Shown piece after piece: positions 4,872 through 61,784 of a stretch of 64,000 bases of DNA (position 1 is its first letter; each line of letters opens with the position of its first letter). Below the pieces are notes generated by a model that did no database searches, was not told the origin of the DNA, and was given only the letters and a program-made list of their open reading frames with translations. The translations under genes and the position numbers were made by a program. The stretch lies in assembly GCF_055900595.2 (NCBI RefSeq), contig NZ_CM148325.1; one strand, written 5' to 3'.

Positions 4872-5712
4872 GTTCCAGAATGTAGTGATTGTCACTATCG
4901 TCGGTTGGCTTGTGTTGTTTGTCTTTCTGCCCAACCTGATGATCATTGGCACCAGCTTTTTGACCCGCGACGACGCCAGTTTCGTCAAAATGGTCTTTAC
5001 GCTGGATAACTACACGCGTCTGCTCGATCCGCTCTATTTTGAAGTGCTATTGCACTCGCTGAATATGGCGCTGATCGCCACCCTCGCCTGCCTGGTGCTG
5101 GGCTATCCCTTTGCCTGGTTTCTGGCGAAGCTGCCACACAAGGTGCGTCCGCTGCTGCTGTTTCTGCTGATTGTTCCGTTCTGGACCAACTCATTGATTC
5201 GTATCTACGGGCTGAAAATTTTCCTCAGCACCAAAGGCTATCTCAACGAGTTTTTGCTCTGGCTGGGCGTTATCGATACACCAATTCGCATTATGTTCAC
5301 ACCCAGTGCGGTGATTATCGGTCTGGTTTACATTCTGCTGCCGTTTATGGTGATGCCGCTGTACTCCAGTATCGAAAAACTGGATAAGCCGTTGCTGGAG
5401 GCGGCGCGCGATCTCGGTGCCAGCAAGTTGCAGACCTTTATCCGTATCATTATCCCACTGACGATGCCGGGGATTATTGCCGGATGTCTGCTGGTGATGC
5501 TGCCAGCGATGGGCCTGTTCTATGTGTCTGACCTGATGGGCGGTGCGAAAAACCTGCTGATTGGTAACGTCATCAAGGTCCAGTTCCTCAATATTCGTGA
5601 CTGGCCGTTTGGTGCTGCCACCAGCATTACGCTGACTATCGTAATGGGCCTGATGTTGCTGGTTTACTGGCGCGCTTCTCGTCTGCTGAATAAGAAGGTG
5701 GAACTCGAATGA
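4855..5712 (+). CDS. potB: Spermidine/putrescine ABC transporter permease
   Basis: Polytopic membrane ORF; ATG at 4855 overlaps potA by 17 nt; an in-frame GTG at 4885 would give the 275-aa form I recall for K-12, start not resolved. Confidence 0.92.
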
Positions 5713-22297: not shown

Positions 22298-22435
22298 GTA
22301 GGCCTGATAAGACGCGAGCGGCGTCGCATCAGGCACATTGCCAGTGTCGGATGCGGCGTGAACGCCCTATCCGACCTACAGAATTTACAGAATCTGGAAC
22401 GCATCAGGTATCAGCAAGGTTACCTGATGCGACGA
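22298..22435. repeat. Cluster of REP-like palindromes, ndh-ycfP intergenic
   Basis: gtaggcctgataagacgcgagcggcgtcgcatcaggc, tgtcggatgcggcgtgaacgccctatccgacctac, catcaggta...tacctgatg. Confidence 0.65.
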
Positions 22436-23006: not shown

Positions 23007-24847
<1,841 letters not shown>

Positions 24848-28809: not shown

Positions 28810-28885
28810 CAAATGCGCCTGTAAGGCTCTGTTACCAGCCGCGCCCTAACAGGCGCATACGATCTGACATTTGCATTCAACTTCG

Positions 28886-29344
28886 TTACTTACGGCCCGT
28901 AAACGGGCTGCCCGGATATGGAATCGATAACTGCTCCCCCATTTTATCCTCTTCAAGCTGGTGCTTTATGTAGTCCTGTATCTTCGCCGTGTTCTTACCC
29001 ACCGTATCGACATAGTACCCTCGGCACCAGAACTCCCTGTTTCTGTATTTGAATTTCAAATCCCCAAACTGCTCGTAAAGCATCAGACTGCTTTTCCCTT
29101 TCAGATATCCCATAAAGCCGGATACGCTCATTTTGGGTGGGATTTCCACAAGCATATGGATATGATCTGCGCAGCACTCTGCTTCCAGAATCCGTACGCT
29201 TTTCCACTCACACAGCTTTCTCAAAATACTGCCTATCGCCCTACGCTTCTCTCCGTAAAACGCCAGTCTTCGGTATTTCGGCGCAAAAACTATGTGATAT
29301 TTACAGTTCCAGCGGGTGTGCGCTAAGCTCTTTTCGTCCCCCAT
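28886..29344 (-). CDS. tnpA: IS200 transposase TnpA (Y1 HUH family)
   Basis: ORF 28886..29395; ATG at 29344 gives MGDEKSLAHTRWNCKYHIVFAPKYRR...HIHMLV (HUH)...CRGYYVDTVG (catalytic Tyr), ~152 aa. Confidence 0.92.
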   Translation of the reverse strand: MGDEKSLAHTRWNCKYHIVFAPKYRRLAFYGEKRRAIGSILRKLCEWKSVRILEAECCADHIHMLVEIPPKMSVSGFMGYLKGKSSLMLYEQFGDLKFKYRNREFWCRGYYVDTVGKNTAKIQDYIKHQLEEDKMGEQLSIPYPGSPFTGRK

Positions 29345-29420
29345 TGGGACCCCCTTTTGATTTCTTGTTTGACACTTGCAGTTGCCAGACCGCAAGGTGT
29401 TTTAACAAATCAAAAGGGGT
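29345..29420 (-). promoter_or_regulatory. IS200 tnpA 5' leader stem-loop that occludes the ribosome-binding site
   Basis: In tnpA sense, ccccuuuugauu pairs with aaucaaaagggg, which covers the SD immediately upstream of the ATG; described for Salmonella IS200. Confidence 0.55.
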
Positions 29421-29456
29421 TTTAATAACTGGCTCAAAGCTGAAAGCTTTCCGGAA

Positions 29457-29480
29457 CCCCCAGCCTAGCTGGGGGTTTTC
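29457..29480. terminator. IS200 left-end perfect hairpin (ccccc-agcctagct-ggggg)
   Basis: Perfect palindrome followed by tttt on the plus strand; IS200 ends carry hairpins that block impinging transcription. Confidence 0.5.
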
Positions 29481-34728: not shown

Positions 34729-35538
34729 CTAATTCGGGCGCTCACAAAGTGGGGCTAAATATTCATATAACGTTGCTGACGAAAAGGAGACATCGCCACA
34801 GGCACGTACGGGCATCACTGGCATTAACGCATTACAAATAACCATCTCATCTGCCTGCAACGCCTCTTCCAGAGTGGCTTGCACTTCGACAAGCTGATAA
34901 GAGGATTGTGCCAGTAAACGGATACAGAATTGTCGCATAATGCCGTTAACACCTGCCTGCTCTAGTCGCGGCGTATAAACTACATTGCCCTTCCGCCAGA
35001 ACAAATTAGCCGCACAGCATTCCGTAACCCACCCTTCGCTGTCAAGGACCAGCGCCTCATCAGCGTTTGTCTGCTCAAGATGAGAGCGGATCAATACTTG
35101 TTCAAGCCGATTAAGATGTTTAATACCTGCAAGATGAGGATTGCGCCCCAGCCGCACCGGGCTTAGCGCCAACATCATCCCCTCGTTACGCAAACGATCG
35201 TAATGTGCAGGATAAGCCGTAACGGAGAGAATCCGCGTTGCCGGTCCGCTGTTCAATGTGCTGTACCCTCGCCCGCCACTACCGCGACTGATCACGACCT
35301 TCAGCACACCATTCTGCTGTTCTGCTGCCAGCGTTTTCATCTCTTGTTCAAGCTGAGGCCAGAAGTCACAGGAAATCATCAACCGCTGACAAGCATCCTG
35401 TAGTCGCTGGATATGTGCCGATAACAAACTGACTTTACCGTCGATAACTCTGGCGGTGGTAAAACAACCATCACCAAACTGCGTTGCTCGATCGCTTACT
35501 GCCAGCGATTCCTGCTTATGACCGTTAATTAAGAACAT
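34729..35538 (-). CDS. pabC: Aminodeoxychorismate lyase
   Basis: 269 aa, [31 protein letters not shown]...; PLP fold-type IV. Confidence 0.95.
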
Positions 35539-35606
35539 ACCGGCTCCTTATCAGAGAATTGTTAGTGTGGCAGCATGTTCACTACAGAACAAGTCGGAAT
35601 AAAAGC

Positions 35607-36320
35607 TAATAAATATCCTCCGGCATAGCCGGAGGTTTTTCAAATGCGCCTGTAAGGCTCTGTTACCAGCCGCGCCCTAACAGGCGCATACGATCTGACA
35701 TTTGCATTCAACTTCGTTACTTACGGCCCGTAAACGGGCTGCCCGGATATGGAATCGATAACTGCTCCCCCATTTTATCCTCTTCAAGCTGGTGCTTTAT
35801 GTAGTCCTGTATCTTCGCCGTGTTCTTACCCACCGTATCGACATAGTACCCTCGGCACCAGAACTCCCTGTTTCTGTATTTGAATTTCAAATCCCCAAAC
35901 TGCTCGTAAAGCATCAGACTGCTTTTCCCTTTCAGATATCCCATAAAGCCGGATACGCTCATTTTGGGTGGGATTTCCACAAGCATATGGATATGATCTG
36001 CGCAGCACTCTGCTTCCAGAATCCGTACGCTTTTCCACTCACACAGCTTTCTCAAAATACTGCCTATCGCCCTACGCTTCTCTCCGTAAAACGCCAGTCT
36101 TCGGTATTTCGGCGCAAAAACTATGTGATATTTACAGTTCCAGCGGGTGTGCGCTAAGCTCTTTTCGTCCCCCATTGGGACCCCCTTTTGATTTCTTGTT
36201 TGACACTTGCAGTTGCCAGACCGCAAGGTGTTTTAACAAATCAAAAGGGGTTTTAATAACTGGCTCAAAGCTGAAAGCTTTCCGGAACCCCCAGCCTAGC
36301 TGGGGGTTTTCTGTGCACAA
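35607..36320 (-). mobile_element. IS200-family insertion sequence, copy B (714 bp), same orientation as copy A
   Basis: Matches 28776-29489; flanks diverge at 35606/28775 and 36321/29490. Confidence 0.9.
35717..36175 (-). CDS. tnpA: IS200 transposase TnpA (Y1 HUH family), copy B
   Basis: Protein identical to copy A; same RBS-occluding stem-loop at 36176-36251. Confidence 0.92.
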   Translation of the reverse strand: MGDEKSLAHTRWNCKYHIVFAPKYRRLAFYGEKRRAIGSILRKLCEWKSVRILEAECCADHIHMLVEIPPKMSVSGFMGYLKGKSSLMLYEQFGDLKFKYRNREFWCRGYYVDTVGKNTAKIQDYIKHQLEEDKMGEQLSIPYPGSPFTGRK

Positions 36321-36347
36321 GAAAAAAGGCCCGCAAGCGGACCTTTT
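36321..36347 (-). terminator. fabF rho-independent terminator
   Basis: In fabF sense, ggtccgc-ttgc-gggcc followed by ttttttc, then IS200 copy B. Confidence 0.65.
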
Positions 36348-42767: not shown

Positions 42768-42795
42768 TTAACTTTGTAACGTCATAGAGTCAAAG

Positions 42796-42950
42796 AAAAA
42801 GGCAGCCTGTGGTTGCCTTTTGCCAATAATTCGCACACATTGCGGGTTACTGCTTTATTTTCGTTCAGTGCTGATAACGAACATCAACCTGCAAAACGAA
42901 GCGCATAGTTTAAAATGGCTATCATCAATACGCTATATCTGTTGGAAAAA
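42796..42950 (-). ncRNA. sraB: Candidate small RNA SraB in the yceD-yceF intergenic region
   Basis: K-12 has sRNA SraB between yceF and yceD, codirectional with yceD (recalled). A terminator-like hairpin with T-tract on the minus strand (42796-42821) lies ~40 nt upstream of the yceD ATG; the 5' end is not determined from sequence. Confidence 0.35.
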
Positions 42951-42953
42951 AAT

Positions 42954-43538
42954 ATGCCTAAACTTATTTTAGCCTCCACCTCGCCCTGGCGTCGCGCTCT
43001 TCTGGAAAAACTGCAAATCTCTTTTGAATGTGCAGCACCCGAGGTCGACGAAACCCCACGCAGTGACGAATCACCGCGACAGTTGGTGCTTCGACTGGCG
43101 CAGGAAAAAGCGCAATCTCTGGCGTCACGTTATCCGGATCATTTAATTATTGGTTCAGACCAGGTATGTGTTCTTGATGGCGAAATCACCGGTAAACCGT
43201 TAACGGAAGAAAATGCCCGTCTGCAATTACGCAAAGCCAGCGGCAATATCGTCACCTTCTATACTGGCCTGGCGTTGTTTAATTCGGCGAATGGGCATCT
43301 GCAAACAGAAGTGGAGCCTTTTGACGTCCATTTCCGTCACCTGAGCGAGGCGGAGATTGATAATTACGTGCGTAAGGAGCATCCCCTGCACTGTGCGGGT
43401 AGCTTTAAGAGTGAAGGATTTGGCATTACGCTGTTTGAGCGTTTAGAAGGGCGTGACCCTAACACGCTGGTTGGTTTACCGCTAATCGCGCTGTGTCAGA
43501 TGTTACGTCGGGAAGGGAAAAATCCGCTGATGGGATAG
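42954..43538 (+). CDS. yceF: Maf-like nucleoside triphosphate pyrophosphatase YceF
   Basis: ORF 42915..43538; ATG at 42954 gives [20 protein letters not shown]... 194 aa (Maf family). Confidence 0.92.
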
Positions 43539-44820: not shown

Positions 44821-45181
44821 GTTTCCGTGTCCATCCTTGTTAAAACAAGAAATTTTACGGAATAACCCATTTTGCCCGACCGATCATCCACGCAGCAATG
44901 GCGTAAGACGTATTGATCTTTCAGGCAGTTAGCGGGCTGCGGGTTGCAGTCCTTACCGGTAGATGGAAATATTTCTGGAGAGTAATACCCAGTCTGTTTC
45001 TTTGATAATTGCGCTGTTTTTCCGCATGAAAAACGGGCAACCGACACTCTGCGCCTCTTTGAGCTGACGATAACCGTGAGGTTGGCGACGCGACTAGACA
45101 CGAGGCCATCGGTTCACACCCGGAAAGGCGTTACTTTGCCCGCAGCTTAGTCGTCAATGTAAGAATAATGAGTAAGTTACG
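44821..45181 (+). promoter_or_regulatory. rne promoter and long 5' UTR (RNase E autoregulation region); boundaries approximate
   Basis: Established: the K-12 rne mRNA has a ~361-nt leader containing hairpins that mediate autoregulation; 5' boundary here is by analogy only. Confidence 0.5.
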
Positions 45182-48100
45182 ATGAAAAGAATGTTAATCA
45201 ACGCAACTCAGCAGGAAGAGTTGCGCGTTGCCCTTGTAGATGGGCAGCGTCTGTATGACCTGGATATCGAAAGTCCAGGGCACGAACAGAAAAAGGCAAA
45301 CATCTACAAAGGTAAAATCACCCGCATTGAACCGAGTCTGGAAGCTGCTTTTGTTGATTACGGCGCTGAACGTCACGGTTTCCTCCCACTTAAAGAAATT
45401 GCCCGCGAATATTTCCCTGCTAACTACAGTGCTCATGGCCGTCCCAACATTAAAGATGTGTTGCGTGAAGGTCAGGAAGTTATTGTTCAGATTGATAAAG
45501 AAGAGCGCGGTAACAAAGGCGCAGCACTGACCACCTTTATCAGCCTGGCAGGTAGCTATCTGGTTCTGATGCCGAACAACCCGCGCGCGGGTGGTATTTC
45601 TCGCCGTATTGAAGGCGACGACCGTACCGAATTAAAAGAAGCACTGGCAAGCCTTGAACTGCCGGAAGGCATGGGGCTTATCGTGCGCACCGCTGGCGTC
45701 GGCAAATCTGCTGAGGCGCTGCAATGGGATTTAAGCTTCCGCCTGAAACACTGGGAAGCTATTAAAAAAGCCGCTGAAAGCCGCCCTGCCCCGTTCCTGA
45801 TCCATCAGGAGAGCAACGTCATCGTTCGCGCATTCCGCGATTACTTACGTCAGGACATCGGCGAAATCCTTATCGATAACCCGAAAGTGCTCGAACTGGC
45901 GCGTCAGCATATCGCTGCATTAGGTCGCCCGGATTTCAGCAGCAAAATCAAGCTGTACACTGGTGAAATTCCGCTGTTCAGCCACTACCAGATCGAGTCG
46001 CAGATCGAGTCCGCCTTCCAGCGTGAAGTCCGTCTGCCGTCTGGTGGTTCTATTGTTATCGACAGCACTGAAGCGTTAACTGCCATTGATATCAACTCCG
46101 CACGCGCAACCCGCGGCGGCGATATCGAAGAAACCGCGTTTAACACCAACCTCGAAGCTGCCGATGAGATTGCTCGTCAGCTGCGCCTGCGTGACCTCGG
46201 CGGCCTGATTGTTATCGACTTCATTGACATGACGCCAGTCCGCCACCAGCGTGCGGTAGAAAACCGTCTGCGTGAAGCGGTGCGTCAGGACCGTGCACGT
46301 ATTCAAATCAGCCATATTTCTCGCTTTGGTCTGCTGGAAATGTCGCGTCAGCGCCTGAGTCCATCGCTGGGTGAGTCCAGCCATCACGTCTGCCCGCGCT
46401 GCTCTGGTACCGGCACCGTGCGTGACAACGAATCCCTGTCGCTCTCTATTCTGCGTCTGATTGAAGAAGAAGCGCTGAAAGAGAACACCCAGGAAGTCCA
46501 TGCCATTGTTCCTGTGCCAATCGCTTCTTACCTGCTGAACGAAAAACGCTCTGCGGTAAATGCCATTGAAACTCGTCAGGACGGCGTGCGCTGTGTGATT
46601 GTGCCAAACGATCAGATGGAAACCCCGCACTACCATGTGCTGCGCGTACGCAAAGGGGAAGAAACCCCAACGTTAAGCTACATGCTGCCGAAACTGCATG
46701 AAGAAGCGATGGCGCTGCCGTCTGAAGAAGAGTTCGCTGAACGTAAGCGTCCGGAACAGCCTGCGCTGGCAACCTTTGCCATGCCGGATGTGCCGCCAGC
46801 GCCAACCCCGGCTGAACCTGCCGCGCCTGTCGTAGCCCCAACGCCTAAAGCAACACCGGCAACACCAGCAGCTTCTGCACAACCGGGGCTGTTGAGTCGC
46901 TTCTTCAGCGCACTGAAAGCGCTTTTCAGCGGTGGTGAAGAAACCAAACCGACCGAGCAACCGGCACCGAAAACTGAAACGAAACCGGAACGTCAACAGG
47001 ACCGCCGTAAGCCACGTCAGAACAACCGTCGTGACCGTAATGAACGCCGCGACACACGTAGCGAACGTAATGAAGGCAGCGATAATCGCGAAGAAAACCG
47101 CCGTAATCGTCGCCAGGCACAGCAGCAGACTGCCGAGACACGTGAAAGCCGTCAGCAGGCTGAGGTAACGGAAAAAGCGCGTACCACCGACGAGCAGCAA
47201 GCGCCGCGTCGTGAACGTAGCCGCCGCCGTAATGATGATAAACGTCAGGCGCAACAAGAAGCGAAAGCGCTGAATGTTGAAGAGCAATCTGTTCAGGAAA
47301 CCGAACAGGAAGAACGTGTACGTCCGGTTCAGCCGCGTCGTAAACAGCGCCAGCTGAATCAGAAGGTGCGTTACGAGCAAAGCGTAGCCGAAGAAACGGT
47401 AGCCGCACCAGTGGTGGAAGAAACTGCCGCTGCCGAAACCATCGTTCAGGAAGTGCCTGCTCCGCGTACAGAACTGGCGAAAGTCCCGCTGCCAGTCGTA
47501 GCGCAAACTGCGCCGGAACAGCAGGAAGAGAACAATGCTGATAACCGTGATAACGGTGGCATGCCGCGTCGCTCTCGCCGCTCGCCTCGTCACCTGCGCG
47601 TAAGTGGTCAGCGTCGTCGTCGCTATCGTGACGAGCGTTACCCGACCCAGTCGCCAATGCCGTTAACCGTAGCGTGCGCGTCTCCGGAACTGGCCTCTGG
47701 CAAAGTCTGGATCCGCTATCCGATTGTACGTCCGCAAGATGTACAGGTTGAAGAGCAGCGCGAACAGGAAGAAGTACAAGTGCAACCGATGGTGACTGAG
47801 GTCCCTGTCGCCGCCGCTGTCGAACCGGTTGTTAGCGCACCGATTGTTGAAGAAGTGGCTGAAGTCGTAGAAGCCCCCGTTCAGGTTACCGAACCGCAAC
47901 CGGAAGTGGTTGAAACGACGCATCCTGAAGTGATTGCCGCCGCGGTAACTGAACAGCCGCAGGTGATTACCGAGTCTGATGTTGCCGTAGCCCAGGAAGT
48001 TGCAGAACACGCAGAACCGGTGGTTGAACCGCAGGAAGAGACGGCTGATATTGAAGAAGTTGCCGAAACTGCTGAGGTTGTGGTTGCTGAGCCTGAAGTT

Positions 48101-48367
48101 GTTGCTCAACCTGCCGCGCCAGTCGTCGCTGAAGTCGCAGCAGAAGTTGAAACGGTAGCTGCGGTTGAACCTGAGGTCACCGTTGAGCATAACCACGCTA
48201 CCGCGCCAATGACGCGTGCTCCGGCTCCGGCATATGTTCCGGAGGCACCGCGTCACAGTGACTGGCAGCGCCCTGCTTTTACCTTCGAAGGTAAAGGTGC
48301 CGCAGGTGGTCATACGGCAACGCATCATGCATCTGCCGCTCCTGCGCGTCCGCAACCTGTTGAGTAA
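45182..48367 (+). CDS. rne: Ribonuclease E
   Basis: 1061 aa; [30 protein letters not shown]... S1 and catalytic domain followed by Arg-rich and acidic/Pro-rich low-complexity scaffold. Confidence 0.97.
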
Positions 48368-48387
48368 TAATTAGCTCAAGTAATCAA

Positions 48388-48414
48388 GCCCTGGTAACTG
48401 CCAGGGCTTTTTTA
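48388..48414 (+). terminator. rne rho-independent terminator
   Basis: gccctgg-taactg-ccagggc followed by tttttt, 20 nt after the rne stop. Confidence 0.75.
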
Positions 48415-48473
48415 TTTCATCTTTGAATCAACATATTAAATGGCATCCTTGCTAACCAACAATACAAAATAGG

Positions 48474-48510
48474 CAAAAAAATGCCCGCCCCGGCGATCCC
48501 AGAGCGGGCA
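48474..48510 (-). terminator. Probable flgL terminator
   Basis: In flgL sense, gcccgc...gcgggc stem followed by a T-run (plus-strand aaaaaaa 48475-48481). Confidence 0.5.
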
Positions 48511-48551
48511 GACAAAACATACCCAGTTTCATGATATGTTTTAAAGCGAGC

Positions 48552-49505
48552 TTATTTGTTGAGCTGGAACAGCGACAATCCCTGCATATCTGTAAATGCT
48601 TTATACGATGCCTGCAATGCCGTTTGCTGCATGATGTAAGATGAAATAGTTGCATTCCAGTCCACATCAACCAGATCGCTCATCTGCTGCGTTTGCCCTA
48701 AAGCGCGATCGCTACCTAATGAATCCAGCGACTCCAGTTCGTTCAGCTGCGTGCCTAATTCCGCGCGAACGGTCAGCACATTGTTCAGCGAGTTTTTCAG
48801 TCCGCGGTTGGTTTTATCCAGTGCCGCAGCGGCGGTTTCTTTATCCGCTTCGCTTTCCGCGACCGGCGTTTTCAGGGCTGCGATGGCGCTATCCAGCATG
48901 GCAAAAAGATTGGTTTCAGAAGCGCTACCGTCTGGTTCCGCTACCGCGTTGCTGGTAATACTGTCGAAAATTTTGTCACCCGTGTGCCCTATCACCATCG
49001 AACGCGAAGCATCGACCTGTTGTTTAATACTTTCTGCTCCGCCAACATATTCGCCGTCTGCCTCACTAAACGGCGCAGTTTCTGTTTTATAACCGGCAAA
49101 AATGTAGCGCCCGTTACCATCCGTAGTGTTCGCCAGATTCAGCAACTGGTCACGAATACCCTGGATATCGGTTGCCAACGACGCCCGGTCATCATCACTC
49201 AAGGTGCCATTGCTGGCGTAGACAATTTTTTCCTGAGCATTCTGGATAGCAGTGGTGACCTGGCTAAGCACACTCTCTTCCAGTGACACTTTTTGAGTGG
49301 CGAAAGTACGCGCCAGCGTGTACTGGCTGTTTTGCGCCTGTGCCTGGGAGAGAACAACAGCTTGTGATGCAGCAATGGGATCATCTGAAGGGTTAACGAC
49401 TCGCTTACCCGTCGACATCTGTTCGCCGTACTTCATCCATTCGGCCTGAGAATTGGTGATGCCACGCATGTTTTGCTGGTACATCATCTGGGTACTGAAA
49501 CGCAT
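48552..49505 (-). CDS. flgL: Flagellar hook-filament junction protein 3 (HAP3)
   Basis: 317 aa, MRFSTQMMYQQNMRGITNSQAEW... Confidence 0.95.
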   Translation of the reverse strand: MRFSTQMMYQQNMRGITNSQAEWMKYGEQMSTGKRVVNPSDDPIAASQAVVLSQAQAQNSQYTLARTFATQKVSLEESVLSQVTTAIQNAQEKIVYASNGTLSDDDRASLATDIQGIRDQLLNLANTTDGNGRYIFAGYKTETAPFSEADGEYVGGAESIKQQVDASRSMVIGHTGDKIFDSITSNAVAEPDGSASETNLFAMLDSAIAALKTPVAESEADKETAAAALDKTNRGLKNSLNNVLTVRAELGTQLNELESLDSLGSDRALGQTQQMSDLVDVDWNATISSYIMQQTALQASYKAFTDMQGLSLFQLNK

Positions 49506-49516
49506 TTTATCTCCCC

Positions 49517-51160
49517 TTAGCGAATGTTAATCAGCGCATCAAAAATCGCGTTTGCCGTCTGCAGAACCTGCGCATTCGCGAGGTAATACTGCTGAAAACG
49601 TTGCAGATTTCCGTACTCCTCGTCGAGATTGACACCAGAAATCGACTGCTGCTGATTGGAAAGCTGCGTCACCACATTACCTTGCGTGGTGCTACTGGTT
49701 TTCAACGTCGCGGTTTTATTACCGATATCACTCACTAACGAGGCATAAGCGTCGTTAAAGGATTTCGCACCGCCCACCGTTTTACTGTTACTTTGCAGAT
49801 CCAGCAGGGCCTGCCCGTTGCGGTTGTCGCTATCACCCGCATCTTCTTCGCTCGCCATGGCGATTTTCGCTTCGTCAGTGATTAATACATCCATGTTGAC
49901 GATGGCGTCACTTACCGGTTTCAGCGTGAAGCTGTCGTTAGCGGCAGGCGTGCCTGTAAACGTCAACTCCAGACCATCAAATACAACTTTACCGTTGTTA
50001 TCCGGCGTCACCGTAAAAGTGGTGTTGCTGGCAAGGCGGGTGACCTGCCACTGATTATTGTCGAACGAAATTTTGTAATCTGTCGCCAGTACCGCGGAGG
50101 CATCAGTTACCGTTGCACCGATCGAAACGTCACCTTTGTTTTTCGTGTTTTGCAGAACCGCGGGCTTACCGATAGCAAAGAAATCTTCACCGGCATCGCC
50201 GTTAGCATCAAATCCGGCTTTGTGTTGGGTGTTGAAAGCCTCGGCAAATGCCAGCGCCAGTTGTCCGAGCGTATTACGCGTCTGGTCCAGATCCTGAGAA
50301 CGGAATGTCAGAATGCCGCCCAGCGACCCGGTATTCAGTAATTTCTCCGGGATCTCAATATTGCCTGCCGTCCCATCAACATAAGCGACAGTCGTACGAG
50401 AAGGGTCGGCGCTGGAAGGAACTGCCGCAAGTTGCCGCGCCGTACTTCCCTGAACCAGTGAGTAGCCATTGGCCATCGTGATGTTATAAGTGCCACCATC
50501 CTGAACGCTGACTTCTACGCCAACAATCTGGTTTAATTCGCTCACCAGTTGATCGCGTTGATCCAGCAGATTGTTAGGTGACGCCCCTGCCCCCACGCCT
50601 GTCAGGCGGGAGATCTGATCGTTCAGGCTGGCGATTTGTTTAGCGTAATTGTTGATCTGATCAACGCTGGCACCTATCGCGATATTGACCTGTTTGTCCT
50701 GGTCGCGCAGATATTGATCGGTGGTTTTAAACTGATTCACCAACCCTTCTGATTTCCCAATCAGCGCCTGGCGTGCTGCCGGGTCTTCCGCGTTACTTAC
50801 CAGCGTTTGCAGGCTTGTGAAGAAATCCTGCATCTGTGTTGCCAGCGAAGAGGTACTGGTGGAGAGCATATTGTCGATTTTCGACATCTGCTCATAGCGG
50901 GCAGTCAGGCCGCTACTTTGCGTCTGCGCCGCACGTAACTGGTTGGTAATAAAAGCATCATACTCACGCTGCACACCGGAAACGTAGACACCATTGCCAA
51001 CCCAGCCACCCGCGCCCAACGTGCTGTTGGCCTGCGCCATAATAGTGGTTTGGCGGGTATATCCGGCAACGTTATAGCTGGAGATATTATTACTTGCCGT
51101 ATTTAACGCCGCCTGAGCCGCGTTCAGTCCGCTCATGGCGTTATTGATCAAGCTGGACAT
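49517..51160 (-). CDS. flgK: Flagellar hook-filament junction protein 1 (HAP1)
   Basis: 547 aa, MSSLINNAMSGLNAAQAALNTASNNISSYN... Confidence 0.95.
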   Translation of the reverse strand: MSSLINNAMSGLNAAQAALNTASNNISSYNVAGYTRQTTIMAQANSTLGAGGWVGNGVYVSGVQREYDAFITNQLRAAQTQSSGLTARYEQMSKIDNMLSTSTSSLATQMQDFFTSLQTLVSNAEDPAARQALIGKSEGLVNQFKTTDQYLRDQDKQVNIAIGASVDQINNYAKQIASLNDQISRLTGVGAGASPNNLLDQRDQLVSELNQIVGVEVSVQDGGTYNITMANGYSLVQGSTARQLAAVPSSADPSRTTVAYVDGTAGNIEIPEKLLNTGSLGGILTFRSQDLDQTRNTLGQLALAFAEAFNTQHKAGFDANGDAGEDFFAIGKPAVLQNTKNKGDVSIGATVTDASAVLATDYKISFDNNQWQVTRLASNTTFTVTPDNNGKVVFDGLELTFTGTPAANDSFTLKPVSDAIVNMDVLITDEAKIAMASEEDAGDSDNRNGQALLDLQSNSKTVGGAKSFNDAYASLVSDIGNKTATLKTSSTTQGNVVTQLSNQQQSISGVNLDEEYGNLQRFQQYYLANAQVLQTANAIFDALINIR

Positions 51161-51193
51161 GGAGGTTCCTTATAAGCCTTCAATTACAGAGTA

Positions 51194-51220
51194 TTATCGG
51201 CAGCGACACGCCGGACTTGA
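51194..51220 (-). promoter_or_regulatory. Candidate sigma-28 (FliA) class-3 promoter for flgKL
   Basis: In flgK sense, TCAA-N15-GCCGATAA, 34 nt upstream of the flgK ATG; consensus is TAAA-N15-GCCGATAA. Confidence 0.5.
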
Positions 51221-51225
51221 GTTAT

Positions 51226-52167
51226 TCAGAACAGATTATCAATGTTCATGCTGTAGGTTTTGCTCACCTTGTCGCTTATCGATTTCATCTGCTGAATCAT
51301 GTTGGTGAGTTTTCGGGCATAGTGAGGATCGGTAGCATAGCCCGCGTCCTGTAGGGCCTGCGCCCCCTGCTCCGCACTCGCGGCGGTCGTCACGGCAGCG
51401 TAGCGCGGGTTACGTGTTAATAGCCCAACGTAATCCGACAATGCTTCCAGATACGAGCTGTAGACCCGAAACTTCGCTTTTACTTTCTTCGCTTCGCCAT
51501 TTTCATATTCAGTCGTGGTGATTTCAGTGACTGGCCCTTTCCAGTTGCCAGAGGCTTTGACGCCAAACAGGTTATAGCTCGGCTCGCCGTTTTCACGGCG
51601 GATTTGCCGTTGCCCCCAGCCAGACTCCAGCGCCGCCTGAGCGAGGATCAAATGGTGTGGCACACCACTTTGCTGGCTTGCCAGTTGGGCGGGCAGTGAG
51701 AGTTGCGCGAGGAATGCTTTACTGTCACCTGGCAGCGAATCATCGTAGTTGCGTGGTACGGCCTTTTGCACCAGCTGCGAAAGCGTCTGATTTTGATAAC
51801 GCATCACGGTTTCGAGCGGGAATTTCATCGGTGCTGCTGGCGTGGACTCATCTGGCAACGGTTGTTCTGGCGTCATCTGTTTAACCATCATCTCTGCCAG
51901 CCCCAGGCCTTTGCCCGCCGTCATCTGTTGGGCAATCTGCTGGTCATACATACTGGTGTAGAGGCGAGTGTGCTCGCTGCTGAACAGGCCATCTTTTGGC
52001 AAAGCGTCGCGCATGCTTTTCAGCATCATCTGCACGAACATCCCTTCTACCTGACGGGCCACTGGACGGATATTTGCCGCTGGATCTTCGCCCGCTTTCG
52101 CCTTCAGTTCGTTGAGCGATTGCGCATCCCAGGCCGCACTCGCCAGTAGTTTGCTGTCGCTGATCAT
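51226..52167 (-). CDS. flgJ: Flagellar rod assembly protein / peptidoglycan hydrolase FlgJ
   Basis: ORF to 52197; ATG at 52167 gives [18 protein letters not shown]... 313 aa; start overlaps the flgI stop by 1 nt. Confidence 0.93.
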   Translation of the reverse strand: MISDSKLLASAAWDAQSLNELKAKAGEDPAANIRPVARQVEGMFVQMMLKSMRDALPKDGLFSSEHTRLYTSMYDQQIAQQMTAGKGLGLAEMMVKQMTPEQPLPDESTPAAPMKFPLETVMRYQNQTLSQLVQKAVPRNYDDSLPGDSKAFLAQLSLPAQLASQQSGVPHHLILAQAALESGWGQRQIRRENGEPSYNLFGVKASGNWKGPVTEITTTEYENGEAKKVKAKFRVYSSYLEALSDYVGLLTRNPRYAAVTTAASAEQGAQALQDAGYATDPHYARKLTNMIQQMKSISDKVSKTYSMNIDNLF

Positions 52168-53264
52168 CAGATAATTTCCAGTTTTGCCCGCAGACATCCC
52201 GCACTTTGCATTGATTGCAAAATAGACATCAGATCCATCGGCGTAGCACCCAGCGCATTGAGCGCGCGCACCACGTTATTGAGGCTGGCACTGGAGCGTA
52301 CGCTTTGCAGCGAACCGCCGCTCTGGCGTAAGTCGATCTGTGTTTGTGGAGTAACCACAGTCTGCCCACCACCAAACGGTGTATCTGGCTGGCTGACATT
52401 GGCCTGGCGATTAACTGTTACTGAGAGATTCCCCTGCGCTACCGCGCAGCTGTCGAGGGTCACTTCGCGATTCATCACCACCGAACCAGTGCGCGAGTTA
52501 ATCACTACTTTAGCGTCCTGCGGGGTGACATTAACCTGCATATTCTGGATATCGGCAAGGAAACGGACCTGGGAACTGTTGCCACTCGGTACGCGCACCT
52601 GAATAGTCCGCGCATCTAACGCGGTGGCGCTGCCATATCCACGCACGCGGTTGATGGTGTCAGCGATTTGCTGCGCCATACTGAAATCTTCGTCGTTAAG
52701 TTGCAAATTAAGGGTATTCCCGACGCCAAATTGGCTGGGCAATTCACGTTCAATAACCGCACCATTGGTGATCCGTCCACCGTTCAGTTGGTTCACCTGA
52801 ACACTGCTACCGCCAGCGGAGGCCCCTGCGCCGCCAACCAGAATATTGCCCTGTGCCAGCGCATACACCTGACTGTCAACGCCCTTAAGCGGTGTCATCA
52901 ATAACGTACCGCCACGCAGACTTTTGGCATTTCCCATGGAAGAAACCACCACGTCAATGGTTTGCCCCTGACGTCCAAACGGTGGAAGTGACGCCGTCAC
53001 CATTACCGCAGCGACGTTTTTTAGCTGCATATTAGTGCCCGTCGGAACGGTAATTCCCAGCTGTGAGAGCATGTTATTAAGCGTTTGTGTGGTAAACGGC
53101 GTCTGAGTTGTCTGGTCACCGGTGCCATCCAGCCCCACCACCAGGCCATAGCCAATCAGTGAGTTTTGCCTTACCCCCTGAACACTGGTGAGATCGCGAA
53201 TACGCTCAGCCTGAGCTGCCGTGATAACCAGTAGAAGAATTAATGCAGAGAGAAATTTAATCAC
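52167..53264 (-). CDS. flgI: Flagellar P-ring protein
   Basis: ORF from GTG 53267; second GTG at 53264 gives (M)[18 protein letters not shown]... 365 aa with signal peptide. Confidence 0.94.
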
Positions 53265-53275
53265 CACAGCCTCAC

Positions 53276-53974
53276 TTACATTGGCGACAGGTTAAGGAAG
53301 AAACGCTGCAACCAGCCCATATTTTGCGCTTCGTTAATGTAGCCATTGCCTACGTATTCAATGCGCGCATCCGCCACCTGAGTAGACGGTACGGTATTAC
53401 TGCCGCTGATGGTGCGAGGATTAACTACACCAGAGAAGCGAATAAATTCGGTACCCTGATTAATGGCGATCTGTTTTTCACCCACCACATGCAGGTTGCC
53501 GTTGACCAGTACCTGGTCAACCGTCACCGTCAACGTGCCGCTAAAGGTATTGCTGGCATTGGCCCCACCTTTTCCGTTGAACGTGTTGCCACCAGAGGCT
53601 TCGACATCGGCACGAGCGTTACCAAACAGCCCCTGCAAATAGCGCGGCACAGTATCAAAGCCAAAATTAGTTTTACCGTCACGGCTGGCATTCGCAGAGG
53701 AGCTTTTGCTGGCGCTGACGTTCTCCTGCAACACGATGGTCAGCGTATCGCCAATATTGCGTGGTCGACGATCTTCAAACAGCGGTTGATAGCCATAGTT
53801 AATCGGCTGAGCAGACTGGAAAATAGAACCGTTGGCGACGGGCGTCGGACCGGGAACCGGTTGTGCACTGGTCGCCCCCTGTACCAGCGGCGTGGAGGGT
53901 ATCCAGGCGCAGCCGGTTAGTGAAAGCACCAACAAGCTGGAAATGGCATAAGTATGCGCAGCGTTTTTTTGCAT
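53276..53974 (-). CDS. flgH: Flagellar L-ring lipoprotein
   Basis: ORF to 53989; ATG at 53974 gives [22 protein letters not shown] (lipobox) 232 aa. Confidence 0.94.
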
Positions 53975-54026
53975 GGCTATCATCTTCAAAAATCAGTAAA
54001 CCGGTGAATCTGCCACCGGTTATGCC

Positions 54027-54827
<801 letters not shown>

Positions 54828-54852
54828 TTATTGACAAAATGCATATGTCTTC

Positions 54853-54888
<36 letters not shown>

Positions 54889-54980
54889 AAGAGCTCGCGA
54901 AATCAATAAATTGCGATTGCCCCCATAGACCCGATAAACTTGCGCATCGGGCAACTTATTCTTGTCATGTATCCGTTCAA

Positions 54981-55736
54981 TTAACTCATCGACAGCAGTT
55001 GGTTGGCACGGCCTGCGTTATCATCGACGCTGCTGATCACCTTCATCTGCATTTCAAAACGCCGCGCGCTGGCAATCATGTCGCTCATTGCCGCAACGGC
55101 ATTGACGTTACTGCCTTCCAGAACCCCCGACATCACACGTAAGGTTGGATCTGCCTGCAGTACCGGCCCACGCGTAGCCTGGCTTTCTGCGCTTAAACGA
55201 AAAATGCCGTCGTCACCGCGCTGCACTTCGCTGCCCGTGGCTTTCACCAGCTTCAGACGCCCCACTGGCGCGACAGTATTTGCCGGATCGCCAGAATTCA
55301 GCGCCGAGATTGTGCCATCGGCAGCAACAGTGATTTCCGCCCCTTCCGGCACAGCAATTGGCCCCGCCTCGCCGATCACCGGATGCCCCTGAATTGTCAG
55401 TTGCCCGGTGGGATCAACCTGAATGCTGCCATTACGCGTATATCCTTCGCTGCCGTCAGCGGTCTGCACGGCCAGCCAGCCGTCCTGCTGCAACGCGACG
55501 TCCAGCGGGCGCGAGGTGTAATCCATCTTACCGGGCGTCATGTCAGCACCCGGTGTTGACGCCGTAACCAGCGTGCGCGTGGGTAGTGAAAGCCCTTCCA
55601 CCGGCACTGCACGCAAGGCGTTTAACTGTGCGCGAAAACCGGGCGTAGAGGCATTGGCCAGATTACTGGCGGTCACCGCCTGTTGATTCAGCGTCTGGCT
55701 GGCTGCCCCCATCGCGGTATAAATTGCGTGATCCAT
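54981..55736 (-). CDS. flgF: Flagellar proximal rod protein
   Basis: 251 aa, MDHAIYTAMGAASQTLNQQAVTASNLANAST... Confidence 0.95.
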   Translation of the reverse strand: MDHAIYTAMGAASQTLNQQAVTASNLANASTPGFRAQLNALRAVPVEGLSLPTRTLVTASTPGADMTPGKMDYTSRPLDVALQQDGWLAVQTADGSEGYTRNGSIQVDPTGQLTIQGHPVIGEAGPIAVPEGAEITVAADGTISALNSGDPANTVAPVGRLKLVKATGSEVQRGDDGIFRLSAESQATRGPVLQADPTLRVMSGVLEGSNVNAVAAMSDMIASARRFEMQMKVISSVDDNAGRANQLLSMS

Positions 55737-55755
55737 TGAGCTATCCCGTCAGCGA

Positions 55756-56961
55756 TTAGCGTAAGTTAACCAGCGTGTTGAGGATCTGGTCCTGGGTTTT
55801 GATGGTCTGGGCGTTAGACTGATAGTTACGCTGGGCAACGATCATATTGACCAGTTCTTTGCTGAGATCGACATTGGACGCTTCCAGCGCACCGTTGGTC
55901 AGGGTGCCAAAGTTGCCCGTCCCGGCTGTCCCCAACAGCGCCACGCCAGAAGATTGCGTCGCAGACCAGACGTTGTCGCCTTCGGATGCCAGACCTTCGT
56001 TGTTGGCAAAGTTCGCCAGTACAATCTGCCCCAGCAGTTGGGTTTGTTCGTTGGAATAGTTGCCGACAACCGTACCGTCATCATTGATTTGATAACTCAC
56101 CAGATCGCCCGGTTTATAGCCGTTCTGGGTGGTTGCCACAATGTTGTTAGCACCGGTATTTTGCTGCATGGAGTTGAGGAAGCTCAGGCTAAACGTGGCG
56201 GGATCTGCGCCGTTAATTGCGCCGGTGGTAATATCCTTTGTTGGATCTGAGGTCAGAACGCCATTGGCATTAAACACCAGCGTCGTTGCAGGGTTAGCTG
56301 TGCCTTTTGGATCACTGCTATCCAGGGTGTAAACATCCCAGTTATTATCCCCGGTCTTCACAAAATAAACGCTCATATCATGAGCATTACCCTGACTATC
56401 GAAAACAGTCACCGAACCTTTTTTGTTATAGCTATCCGCATTGCTGGCATCGAATCCTTTAACAGAGGGAAGCGGATCACTGGAATTCAGGTTGATCTGC
56501 ATCGACGCCGTGGTGGTAGTTTTCGCTGCCATCAGGGTATTCGGGATCGAAATATTGGTCGGATTCGCCCCTTGTTGAATAGTCGGCGGCGTACCGGTTG
56601 CCGGATACCCCGTCAGCTGTAATCCTTGCATATTCACCAGGTTACGATTTTCATCGAGCTTAAATTGTCCATTACGGCTGTAAAAAACCGAACCATTGCT
56701 GTCTACCAGACGGAAAAAACCATTCTGGCTGATAGCAACGTCCAGACCTCGCCCGGTGTTGGTGGTCGTGCCATCGGTAAAGTCCTGAGTGATACCGGCA
56801 ACTTTTACCCCCAGTCCCACTTTCGAACCGGCAAACATATCGGCAAAAGAGGCCGTGCCTGATTTAAAGCCGTAGGTGGCGGAGTTGGCGATATTGTTGC
56901 CAATAACATCGAGGTTGGTGGCGGCAGCGTTTAATCCGCTAACCGCTTGAGAAAAGGCCAT
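55756..56961 (-). CDS. flgE: Flagellar hook protein
   Basis: 401-aa ORF, MAFSQAVSGLNAAATNLDVIGNNIANSATYGFK... Confidence 0.95.
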   Translation of the reverse strand: MAFSQAVSGLNAAATNLDVIGNNIANSATYGFKSGTASFADMFAGSKVGLGVKVAGITQDFTDGTTTNTGRGLDVAISQNGFFRLVDSNGSVFYSRNGQFKLDENRNLVNMQGLQLTGYPATGTPPTIQQGANPTNISIPNTLMAAKTTTTASMQINLNSSDPLPSVKGFDASNADSYNKKGSVTVFDSQGNAHDMSVYFVKTGDNNWDVYTLDSSDPKGTANPATTLVFNANGVLTSDPTKDITTGAINGADPATFSLSFLNSMQQNTGANNIVATTQNGYKPGDLVSYQINDDGTVVGNYSNEQTQLLGQIVLANFANNEGLASEGDNVWSATQSSGVALLGTAGTGNFGTLTNGALEASNVDLSKELVNMIVAQRNYQSNAQTIKTQDQILNTLVNLR

Positions 56962-56986
56962 GACTGACTCCTGAAATTTGAGGGCT

Positions 56987-57682
56987 TTAAATTATCTGCC
57001 GTACTTCGTCGAGGGTGGTGGTGCCGTAAGTGCCGAGATCCAGCGTATTACCGTTGTTGCCGCGGATCACCCCCTGCACCAGAGCAAACTGCAGCGGCTG
57101 GGCAACCAGTTGTGTACCACCGTTACTGGCGCTAATCGCTACATTGTAAGAACCGTTCGGCGCAGTGCTGCCGTCAGTCAACGTACCGTCCCAGGTGAAA
57201 CTGTGGACTCCGGCAGTCAGTTCACCGATATCAATGGTACGGACAACCGCGCCGTTTTTATCGGTGATGGTGGCCGTAACTTTGTCTGCCGCCTGCTGCA
57301 ACTCAACACCAAACGGCGTGGTCGTGGTCACAGCCCCTTCCTCACTGCCGGTTCCGGCAAGAACTGTGGTGCCGGGGATCATCACACCGTGACCGATCAG
57401 GTTACTGGCCTGTAGCGACTGGCTGTTATCAATCTGTCCGGAAATAGATCCGAGTGTAGTATTGAGTTTTTCTATCCCGCTGACCGTGCTGATTTGCGCC
57501 AATTGCGACGTCAGCTCGTTGTTTTCCATTGGATTGGTCGGGTCCTGGTTTTTCAGCTGCGCCACCAGCAAAGTCAGAAAACTGCTTTGTAAATCTGCGG
57601 CGTTGCTACCCGTGAGCGAGCTACTGCTGGTGGTGCTAACGCCGGTATTTGTCGGATCGGTGGTGGTTACCGCAATGGACAT
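56987..57682 (-). CDS. flgD: Flagellar hook capping/scaffold protein
   Basis: 231 aa, MSIAVTTTDPTNTGVSTTSSSSLTGSNAADLQ... Confidence 0.95.
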   Translation of the reverse strand: MSIAVTTTDPTNTGVSTTSSSSLTGSNAADLQSSFLTLLVAQLKNQDPTNPMENNELTSQLAQISTVSGIEKLNTTLGSISGQIDNSQSLQASNLIGHGVMIPGTTVLAGTGSEEGAVTTTTPFGVELQQAADKVTATITDKNGAVVRTIDIGELTAGVHSFTWDGTLTDGSTAPNGSYNVAISASNGGTQLVAQPLQFALVQGVIRGNNGNTLDLGTYGTTTLDEVRQII

Positions 57683-57693
57683 AGATTTCTCCT

Positions 57694-58098
57694 TTATTGA
57701 CCAAGCGTAAGGGTTTTCAGCATCATGCTTTTCACCGTGTTGAGCACTTCAACATTGGCCTGATAGCTGCGTGATGCTGACATGGTGTTAACCATCTCGC
57801 CGACAACATCAACGTTTGGCATTTTCACGTAGCCCTTTGCATCCGCCAGCGGATTACCCGGTTCATAAACCAGTTTGTCCGGAGCCTGACTTTCTATAAC
57901 ATCGGCAACCTTTACGCCGCCTGTCGCAGCGCCTGGCGCAGCGTTCACCTGGAATACCACCTGTTTTGCCCGATATGGCTGTCCATCGGGACCGGTCACG
58001 CTATCAGCATTCGCCAGATTACTGGCCGCCACATTCAGGCGCTGGGACTGGGCAGTTAACGCCGACCCGGCGATATCAAAAATGTTCAGCAGTGCCAT
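57694..58098 (-). CDS. flgC: Flagellar proximal rod protein
   Basis: 134 aa, [33 protein letters not shown]... Confidence 0.96.
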
Positions 58099-58101
58099 CC
58101 G

Positions 58102-58518
58102 TTAATTTCCGCTCTGTAAAACGTTCATCATGCCTTTGATTTGCCCGCTCAACGCGCTAAGGCTCATCTGGTATTGCAGGCTGTTATCGGCAAACTGAGT
58201 GCGTTCGCGATCCATATCGACGGTATTACCGTCCAGCGAAGGCTGGTCCGGAATACGGTATTGCAGTTCTGCGGTAGGAGGCGTCAGCGCCTGCGCCGGA
58301 ATGTGTTGCGTTGAGGTCATCGTCAGCGCAACCATGCTGGTTTCATCCCGTCCACGCTGCATGACCTTTTTAAGTTCACTGGCAAAATCGATATCGCGTG
58401 CCTGATAACCAGGGGTATCGGCATTGGCGATGTTTGCTGCCAGCACTTCCTGACGCTGGGCGCGCAGATTGAGCGCCTCTTGTTGAAAACGTAAGGCGGC
58501 GTCGAGCTTATCGAGCAT
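58102..58518 (-). CDS. flgB: Flagellar proximal rod protein
   Basis: 138 aa, [42 protein letters not shown]... Confidence 0.96.
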
Positions 58519-58672
58519 ATCTCCTCCGCAAGTATCAAAATTCTGCCATCAGCTTAAATGCCTTTACGCGCGCGTTATCGGCGGAATAAACGCAAAATGG
58601 GTCGCTATTTATGCCGTTGATGGTCATTGCGTACAGGTACAATTCACGTTGTAGAAATGGCTGGGAGCGAAA
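58519..58672. promoter_or_regulatory. Divergent flgB / flgA class-2 flagellar promoter region (FlhD4C2-dependent in K-12)
   Basis: 154-bp intergenic region between divergent flgB and flgA operons; assignment by established regulon knowledge, individual boxes not mapped. Confidence 0.5.
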
Positions 58673-59332
58673 ATGCTGACAATAAAACGTAGCGTGGCGA
58701 TCATTGCGATACTGTTCAGTCCGTTAAGTACGGCGAGCAATCTCACATCGCAGTTACAAACCTTTTTTAGCGCCCAGCTCGCGGGAGTAAGTGATGAGGT
58801 TCGTGTTTCTATTCGTACATCGCCCCATCTACTTCCGCCGTGCGAGCAACCACTGCTTTCGATAAGCAATAATTCCCGCCTGTGGGGAAATGTGAATGTG
58901 CTGGCACGCTGCGGTAACGACAAACGATATTTGCAAGTCAATGTACAGGCCACAGGAAATTATGTGGTTGCCGCGATGCCCATTGTGCGGGGAGGAAAGC
59001 TGGAAGCTGGCAATGTAAAACTGAAACGCGGCAGGCTGGATACCTTGCCGCCGCGTACTGTGTTGGATATCAATCAACTTATTGATGCCGTTAGCCTGCG
59101 CGATCTATCACCCGAACAACCTATCCAATTAACCCAGTTGCGCCAGGCCTGGCGTGTAAAAGCGGGACAACGCGTCAACGTGATCGCCAGTGGTGATGGG
59201 TTTAGCGCCAACGCTGAAGGTCAGGCGCTGAACAATGCTGCCGTCGCACAGAATGCGCGGGTGCGCATGGTATCGGGACAGGTGGTCAGCGGCGTTGTCG
59301 ATGCAGATGGGAATATTCTTATAAACCTGTAA
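58673..59332 (+). CDS. flgA: Flagellar P-ring assembly chaperone
   Basis: 219 aa with signal peptide, MLTIKRSVAIIAILFSPLSTASNLTSQ... Confidence 0.94.
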   Translation: MLTIKRSVAIIAILFSPLSTASNLTSQLQTFFSAQLAGVSDEVRVSIRTSPHLLPPCEQPLLSISNNSRLWGNVNVLARCGNDKRYLQVNVQATGNYVVAAMPIVRGGKLEAGNVKLKRGRLDTLPPRTVLDINQLIDAVSLRDLSPEQPIQLTQLRQAWRVKAGQRVNVIASGDGFSANAEGQALNNAAVAQNARVRMVSGQVVSGVVDADGNILINL

Positions 59333-59337
59333 CCTGT

Positions 59338-59364
59338 TAAAGATTACCCGACCCATGCCGATAA
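59338..59364 (+). promoter_or_regulatory. Sigma-28 (FliA) class-3 promoter for flgMN
   Basis: Exact consensus TAAA-N15-GCCGATAA: TAAA 59338-59341, spacer 15 nt, GCCGATAA 59357-59364; 44 nt upstream of the flgM ATG. Confidence 0.8.
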
Positions 59365-59407
59365 ATAAGCAACACATGATAAAAGCGCCCTCAATGAGGA
59401 ATAAACC

Positions 59408-59701
59408 ATGAGTATTGACCGCACTTCACCTCTGAAGCCCGTAAGCACCGTTCAACCGCGTGAAACCACTGACGCGCCGGTAACGAATACCCGGGCGGCA
59501 AAAACAACCGCCGCCACCAGCACCAGTGTGACGTTAAGCGACGCGCAAGCAAAACTAATGCAACCCGGCAGCAGTGATATCAATCTTGAACGTGTCGAAG
59601 CGTTAAAACTGGCGATTCGTAACGGTGAACTAAAAATGGACACCGGCAAAATTGCCGATGCGCTAATCAACGAAGCGCAGCAAGACTTGCAGAGTAACTG
59701 A
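59408..59701 (+). CDS. flgM: Anti-sigma-28 factor
   Basis: 97 aa, [38 protein letters not shown]... Confidence 0.96.
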
Positions 59702-59705
59702 TCGT

Positions 59706-60122
59706 ATGACGCGTCTTGCAGAGATCCTCGACCAGATGTCCGCAGTGCTTAACGATCTCAAAACGGTAATGGATCAAGAGCAGCAACATCTCTCAATGGG
59801 GCAGATCAACGGCAGCCAGTTGCAATGGATTACAGAACAAAAAAGCTCACTGCTGGCGACGTTGGATTACCTCGAACAGTTACGCAGAAAAGAACCCAAT
59901 GCAGAAAATAGCGTTGATATTAGTCAACGTTGGCAGGAAATTACGGTGCAAACTCAGCAACTACGTCAAATGAATCAACATAATGGCTGGTTACTGGAAG
60001 GACAGATTGAGCGCAATCAACAGGCGCTGGAAATGTTAAAACCGCATCAGGAACCGACGCTGTACGGGGCGAACGGTCAGACATCAATACCCCATCGCGG
60101 CAGTAAAAAGATTTCGATCTGA
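59706..60122 (+). CDS. flgN: Flagellar export chaperone for FlgK/FlgL
   Basis: 138 aa, MTRLAEILDQMSAVLNDLKTVMDQEQQHLS... Confidence 0.95.
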   Translation: MTRLAEILDQMSAVLNDLKTVMDQEQQHLSMGQINGSQLQWITEQKSSLLATLDYLEQLRRKEPNAENSVDISQRWQEITVQTQQLRQMNQHNGWLLEGQIERNQQALEMLKPHQEPTLYGANGQTSIPHRGSKKISI

Positions 60123-60161
60123 AGATTATCTCCGGCCTGCAGTGCAGGCCGGAATGCATTG

Positions 60162-61784
<1,623 letters not shown>

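Follow-up and report, generated by a model that had tools for sequence, protein, structure and literature searches.

Conserved sigma-28-type promoter elements ahead of flgMN and flgKL in flagellar region I of an Escherichia coli chromosome

In E. coli K-12, the late flagellar genes flgM and flgN are transcribed within the overlapping operons flgAMN and flgMN, and flgKL is transcribed also by read-through from flgB-J (PMC4183435). Binding of sigma-28 (FliA) ahead of both gene pairs has been documented in vivo and in vitro: FliA ChIP-seq gave peaks 48 (flgMN) and 47 (flgKL) fold above threshold, the assigned motifs being TAAAGATTACCCGTCCCTTGCCGATAAA and TCAAGTCCGGCGGGTCGCTGCCGATAAT, respectively (PMC4183435); the sigma-28 ChIP-chip regions SigF_9 and SigF_10 cover both K-12 sites (PMC3923258 supplement); and in genomic SELEX, carried out in vitro with the RpoF holoenzyme alone, the flgA/flgM spacer reached 15.0 and the flgJ/flgK spacer 27.2 (PMC5493296). 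As far as expression is concerned, overexpression of fliA in an flhD deletion strain brings flgM and flgK back to wild-type levels or above, and in liquid culture loss of fliA reduces the steady-state RNA of flgM (451 to 318) and of flgK (318 to 138), without either change being marked significant (PMC4183435); the modest size of this drop can be ascribed to class-2 read-through, which would supply most of the transcript under those conditions. The promoters of tar, tsr, yhjH and fliC have in common with the two promoters considered here the two-octamer architecture and the consensus TAAAGTTT-N11-GCCGATAA; expression of these four genes is near 0 without fliA, whereas flgMN and flgKL are fed by class-2 operons too. 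A further product of the flgKL unit is FlgO, a small RNA processed from the flgL 3' UTR, which is fliA-dependent in K-12 and falls strongly in a fliA deletion (PMC10578931).

The DNA analysed here, a stretch of 64,000 nucleotides hereafter called the window, is part of an E. coli chromosome, and the region is matched in 5425 of 5426 complete E. coli genomes. Based on the annotation of K-12 and the closest genome, the genes follow one another as rne, flgL to flgB (minus strand), flgA-flgM-flgN (plus strand) and murJ, so that flagellar region I is oriented in reverse relative to K-12. A first-pass annotation, made from the letters of the window, had described the flgN-flgL gene set as complete; indeed all 14 open reading frames are present and intact, free of internal stops and equal in length to those of K-12, with the sole exception of flgE (401 against 402 amino acids). 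The last gene before PflgM is flgA (58673-59332, plus strand; stop codon TAA at 59330-59332), followed by the two genes that PflgM serves, flgM (59408-59701, plus) and flgN (59706-60122, plus), both intact and with amino-acid identities to K-12 of 98.0% and 95.7%, respectively; the genes served by PflgK, flgK (49517-51160, minus) and flgL (48552-49505, minus), are likewise intact. Over the whole of flagellar region I (48049-60536) nucleotide identity to K-12 is 96.1%, falling to 93.8% in flgA and flgE, and in the class-2 intergenic region between flgB and flgA (58519-58672), from which a transcript would read through PflgM into flgMN, 3 of 154 positions are not shared with K-12. Matches of at least 99% to flagellar region I occur in merely 12-15 of the 5426 complete genomes, and the closest of these genomes is identical to the window over flgA-flgN (100%) and 98.7% identical over the whole flg region; such a pattern of divergence suggests a rare lineage or recombinant alleles.

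Comparison with that closest complete genome (NZ_CP098223.1) brought out some further features of the window. Two IS200/IS605 copies are present, at 35590-36325 and at about 28880-29480, each containing an Rfam match to STnc490 (36185-36308 and 29354-29477, respectively), and the copy lying between fabF and pabC is missing from NZ_CP098223.1. At the potB/potC junction (window position 5687) the closest genome has a lambdoid prophage, with integrase, excisionase and dicB, beside potC; in the window the phoQ-roxA-pepT-potABCD arrangement is uninterrupted. Rfam matches in their expected places are the RNase E 5' UTR element rne5 (44821-45157, plus), the small RNA SraB (42792-42960, minus) and naRNA4 (22301-22376, minus).

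The element ahead of flgMN, TAAA-N15-GCCGATAA, occupies positions 59338-59364 of the plus strand, starting 6 nt past the flgA stop and ending 43 nt before the flgM ATG, which confirms both the coordinates and the spacing given in the first-pass annotation. Downstream of the flgA stop the sequence reads CCTGT, then TAAAGATT-ACCCGACCCAT-GCCGATAA, and the flgM ATG at 59408 is preceded by a GAGG Shine-Dalgarno sequence. The -35 octamer TAAAGATT (59338-59345) is that of the K-12 FliA ChIP-seq site; it is separated by the 11-nt spacer ACCCGACCCAT (59346-59356) from the -10 octamer GCCGATAA (59357-59364). The element had been called an exact consensus match, and this holds for the short consensus (12 of 12 bases), whereas the long 16-base consensus TAAAGTTT-N11-GCCGATAA is matched at 15 of 16 positions, as it is in K-12. 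Its identification as the established class-3 promoter of flgMN agrees with a base-for-base alignment to the K-12 FliA site: the position 6 nt past the flgA stop, both octamers (identical to those of the published motif; PMC4183435), the 11-nt spacing, the leader and the Shine-Dalgarno sequence are all shared, and the differences within the element are two spacer substitutions, with A in place of T at both 59351 and 59355. These two, together with one substitution just past the flgA stop, make up the 3 differences from K-12 in the whole flgA-flgM interval. The exact allele of the window is found in merely 13 of 5426 complete genomes; its score against the weight matrix described below is 27.0, compared to 27.2 for the K-12 promoter, so that a functional difference is not expected. 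A search for a regulatory structure in the flgM leader gave a fold indistinguishable from shuffles (z = -0.79), and a scan for sigma-70 and terminator patterns around flgAMN returned counts close to chance.

The counterpart ahead of flgKL, TCAA-N15-GCCGATAA, lies on the minus strand at 51194-51220, in the interval that separates flgJ from flgK, at the position and with the single mismatch previously noted. Read along this strand, the flgJ stop TGA (51228-51226) is followed by ATAAC, by TCAAGTCC-GGCGTGTCGCT-GCCGATAA (51220-51194) and by the flgK ATG at 51160. The -35 octamer TCAAGTCC (51213-51220) equals that of the K-12 FliA site; after an 11-nt spacer comes the -10 octamer GCCGATAA (51194-51201), whose end is 33 nt away from the flgK ATG, on the coding strand of that gene. 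The short consensus is matched at 11 of 12 positions, the mismatch being the second base of the -35 element, which is C in place of A. The K-12 promoter shares with the window the position 6 nt past the flgJ stop, the arrangement TCAAGTCC-N11-GCCGATAA and the leader, and its published FliA motif has identical octamers (PMC4183435); the only difference in the entire flgJ-flgK interval is a single spacer base, G to T at 51208, so that the class-3 assignment of this element likewise stands, as the orthologue of the K-12 FliA site. At the other end of the unit, FlgO and the intrinsic terminator of the operon, aligning to K-12 flgO (b4826), are found at 48475-48552 on the minus strand, and their fold comprises two stable hairpins with a U-run behind them (z = -3.97); two bases of the terminator stem, T in K-12, are C in the window, and three more differences lie just past the flgL stop. 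The flgKL transcription unit ends with FlgO. Where flgN and murJ converge, a G+C-rich inverted repeat, CTCCGGCCTGCAGTGCAGGCCGGA, is present at 60131-60153; no clear T-run accompanies it on the flgN strand, and it is probably a hairpin shared by the 3' ends of both genes.

How distinctive the two elements are within the window was assessed by a pattern search and by a weight matrix. The search for TAAA-N15-GCCGATAA with up to one mismatch over the whole 64 kb, using 100 dinucleotide-preserving shuffles as control, returned one exact match (59338-59364) and two one-mismatch sites, 51194-51220 on the minus strand and 56190-56216 on the plus strand; the shuffles contained on average 0.35 matches at up to one mismatch, with 2 of 100 reaching 3, and by chance some 0.008 exact matches to all 12 bases would be expected per window (2 x 64000 / 4^12). 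The weight matrix, a check which the first-pass annotation had suggested, was built from the 23 strongest K-12 FliA ChIP-seq sites (PMC4183435), flgM and flgK being left out. It ranks the flgM element at the top of the window with 27.0 bits, a score reached by none of 300 shuffles (maximum 20.3 bits), and the flgK element fifth with 16.4 bits. Since shuffled windows yield 0.21 matches at the latter score, the flgK element is not distinctive by score alone; in any given 100-nt upstream region, on one strand, about 0.0002 matches of at least 16.4 bits are expected, and it is the placement, rather than the score, that makes this element significant.

The look-alike sites of the window illustrate the same point. 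Three other sites score 17.4-19.0 bits, and all were rejected as FliA promoters: the sequence at 57257-57284 (minus), on the sense strand inside flgD, is identical in K-12 and has no ChIP peak there; that at 24073-24100 (minus), at the 3' end of thiK upstream of nagZ, differs by 1 base in K-12, again with no ChIP peak; and in the site at 34923-34950 (plus), antisense in pabC, CGT replaces CGA. The remaining one-mismatch site of the pattern search, 56190-56216 (plus), antisense in flgE, was also discarded, its -10 octamer GCCGTTAA carrying CGT and not the critical CGA, with a score of 10.8 bits. A score of about 16-19 bits is therefore insufficient alone, given that 2 of 3 such sites, checked in K-12, are without a listed FliA ChIP peak; position and conservation are what set the real flgK promoter apart from its look-alikes.

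Conservation was examined at two depths. Within the species, both 101-nt promoter regions are found at 90% identity or more in nearly every complete E. coli genome (5425 and 5424 of 5426), and the most divergent genome sampled retains both octamer pairs. Beyond it, loci from 80 Enterobacterales species were collected by anchoring on FlgB and extending 10 kb to either side, flgM and flgK being located by tblastn, and the best coding-strand matrix match within 200 nt upstream was scored per locus against a threshold of 15 bits; the genera included are Escherichia, Citrobacter, Salmonella, Enterobacter, Dickeya, Pectobacterium, Edwardsiella, Serratia, Yersinia, Hafnia, Pantoea, Erwinia and Rahnella. 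A site of at least 15 bits precedes flgM in 78 of 79 loci (median 23.3) and flgK in 63 of 69 (median 19.1); the upstream regions of flgB, flgA, flgJ, flgL and flgN, taken as controls through the same procedure, reached this threshold in 0 loci. Among 70 distinct versions of the flgM promoter TAAAG and CCGAT are invariant, as are T-AAG and CCGAT among 60 distinct versions of the flgK promoter, while spacer positions vary freely between species, with 30-60% identity among versions. Invariant -35 and -10 elements flanking a drifting spacer are the footprint expected of two functional elements whose spacer is under constraint for its length alone. The promoter starts about 5-13 nt from the upstream stop codon in many genera; in Serratia, Edwardsiella and Hafnia it is far more distant, which shows that the conservation is not explained by overlap with the upstream coding sequence.

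Taken together with the published K-12 data, these observations indicate that the two elements are almost certainly the class-3 (late) flagellar promoters PflgM and PflgK; binding of sigma-28 and FliA-driven expression at the sites of this strain would be expected by extension from the work on K-12 and Salmonella. That the motifs are chance matches devoid of promoter function is vanishingly improbable. Such a view could appeal to the flgK element, whose 16.4 bits are equalled 0.21 times per shuffled window, and to the apparently unbound sites of 17-19 bits; it is contradicted by the flgM score, which no shuffle attained, by the location of both elements at exactly the K-12 positions bound by sigma-28 in vivo and in vitro, and by their persistence across the Enterobacterales with variable spacers, the control upstream regions having none. 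Conservation and the published binding data thus effectively refute it. A different question is how much the two promoters contribute. It is conceivable, although on balance we lean somewhat against it, that they are real sigma-28 promoters of minor importance, read-through dominating the expression of flgMN and flgKL and the class-3 promoters acting as a backup, for example in filament repair or swarming. K-12 RNA-seq, in which deletion of fliA has modest effects on flgM and flgK and deletion of flhDC abolishes their expression, RT-PCR products spanning the flgJ-flgK junction, and the repair or swarming role proposed for Salmonella (all PMC4183435) speak in favour of this backup role; the strict, order-wide conservation of both promoters argues instead for an importance to fitness, the overexpression of fliA alone restores wild-type or higher expression (PMC4183435), and the strong fall of FlgO in a fliA deletion strain (PMC10578931) points in the same direction.

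Transcription start sites provide a further comparison, also suggested by the first-pass annotation, and here the published record is divided. Primer extension on the aer promoter places the CGA of the -10 element at -11 to -9 (PMC2859248), a geometry that predicts +1 at 59370 for flgM and at 51188 for flgK. A flgM::gfp construct containing +1 to 105 with 23 codons (PMC7549644) implies a 36-nt leader and a +1 at window position 59372, 8 nt past GCCGATAA. The predicted class-3 starts are accordingly 59370-59372 (plus) for flgMN and, assuming the same geometry as for flgM, 51185-51188 (minus) for flgKL. The genome-wide table of Kim 2012 and Cho 2014 (PMC3923258 for the latter) lists instead a flgM 5' end at NC_000913.2 1129417 (-), 66 nt before the ATG, which is weak (14-21 reads, in three conditions) and assigned to sigma-70, and has no entry for a flgK start; entries for flgM and flgK are absent from the searched text of the Ettwiller 2016 and Mendoza-Vargas 2009 supplements, and a preprint on the conservation of intragenic FliA sites makes no mention of the start sites of PflgM and PflgK. 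The comparison with published starts is therefore mixed, the 36-nt leader fitting 59372 and the table giving -66 for flgM and nothing for flgK. The -66 end maps to window position 59342, the G of TAAAG, and being located within the -35 element it could not be produced by the sigma-28 promoter at 59338-59364; we take it to be either a weak start for sigma-70 or an end left by processing of the class-2 flgAMN transcript, and both are compatible with a sigma-28 start.

If 59342 were the true flgM-proximal 5' end, set by a weak sigma-70 promoter in the 3' end of flgA or by processing of flgAMN, the TAAA-N15-GCCGATAA element would have no part in setting it; we regard this as improbable. The cleavage motif of RNase E is RN/WUU, which the G/AUU found at that end resembles, and in K-12 a -10-like TAAGCT is present at -12 to -7 of the same end. 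The end is, moreover, listed in both Kim 2012 and Cho 2014, with the 14-21 reads and three conditions already cited and the sigma-70 assignment, and RNase E sites in the flgM and flgK leaders of Salmonella have been mentioned (PMC12399333). Against it stand the low read count, the presence of TAACCT in the window where K-12 has TAAGCT, the ChIP-chip data of the Cho 2014 group itself, which place sigma-28 there (PMC3923258), and the adoption of the 36-nt leader as +1 in later work (PMC7549644); an additional 5' end upstream is in any case compatible with a sigma-28 start.

Taking PflgM and PflgK as sigma-28 promoters, their working in this strain can be outlined by analogy with the described systems. 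Upon completion of the hook-basal body, the anti-sigma factor FlgM would be exported and FliA freed; RNA polymerase carrying FliA would then bind PflgM and PflgK and transcribe flgMN and flgKL-FlgO, presumably starting some 6-8 nt past the -10 octamer. A class-2 operon ends directly ahead of each promoter, at the stop codon of its last gene, and flgMN and flgKL would thus be under dual control: in the early phase, transcripts begun at the FlhDC-dependent promoters of flgA and flgB would read through into them, and later they would be transcribed from their own promoters. Expression of flgM from PflgM would close a negative feedback loop on FliA, and that of flgN, flgK and flgL would provide the hook-filament junction proteins, together with their chaperone, with no need of FlhDC. 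The first-pass annotation had gone on to conclude that region I is intact and under normal class-3 control; the cis elements and the 14 genes are indeed intact, but normal control cannot be read from the window alone, as it depends on fliA, flhDC and the export apparatus, which are encoded elsewhere.

A more particular aspect concerns the -35 element of PflgK. Of the 60 distinct versions collected from 68 Enterobacterales species, 59 carry TCAAG, TTAAG being confined to Edwardsiella; the corresponding TAAAG of PflgM is found in 70 of 70 distinct versions, and the adjoining spacer bases are saturated with change. The matrix favours A at the second position of the -35 element, hence the C of PflgK is not produced by the way in which sites were selected. 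Moreover, the TCAA site of K-12 is not bound more weakly than the flgM site, either by ChIP (47 compared to 48; PMC4183435) or by SELEX (27.2 compared to 15.0; PMC5493296), so that the C may set something besides occupancy; it may tune promoter escape, the timing of class-3 expression, or the interplay with read-through from flgJ. Tentatively, and with somewhat less than even confidence, the pattern of substitutions can be read as pointing to a promoter-specific state under selection, and not to decay, as the origin of this apparent mismatch. No statement of a selected TCAAG state was found in the literature searched, the scope of which excluded the promoter-mutagenesis work on Salmonella.

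The identification of the two elements is correct, already known, and ordinary for E. coli genomes, and beyond correct annotation it carries little weight: the strain possesses the intact cis elements of flagellar region I, including both late promoters. On the practical side, the window can serve as a clean positive control when scanning for sigma-28 promoters. The conserved TCAAG of PflgK represents a small question for studies of how sigma-28 promoters are tuned.
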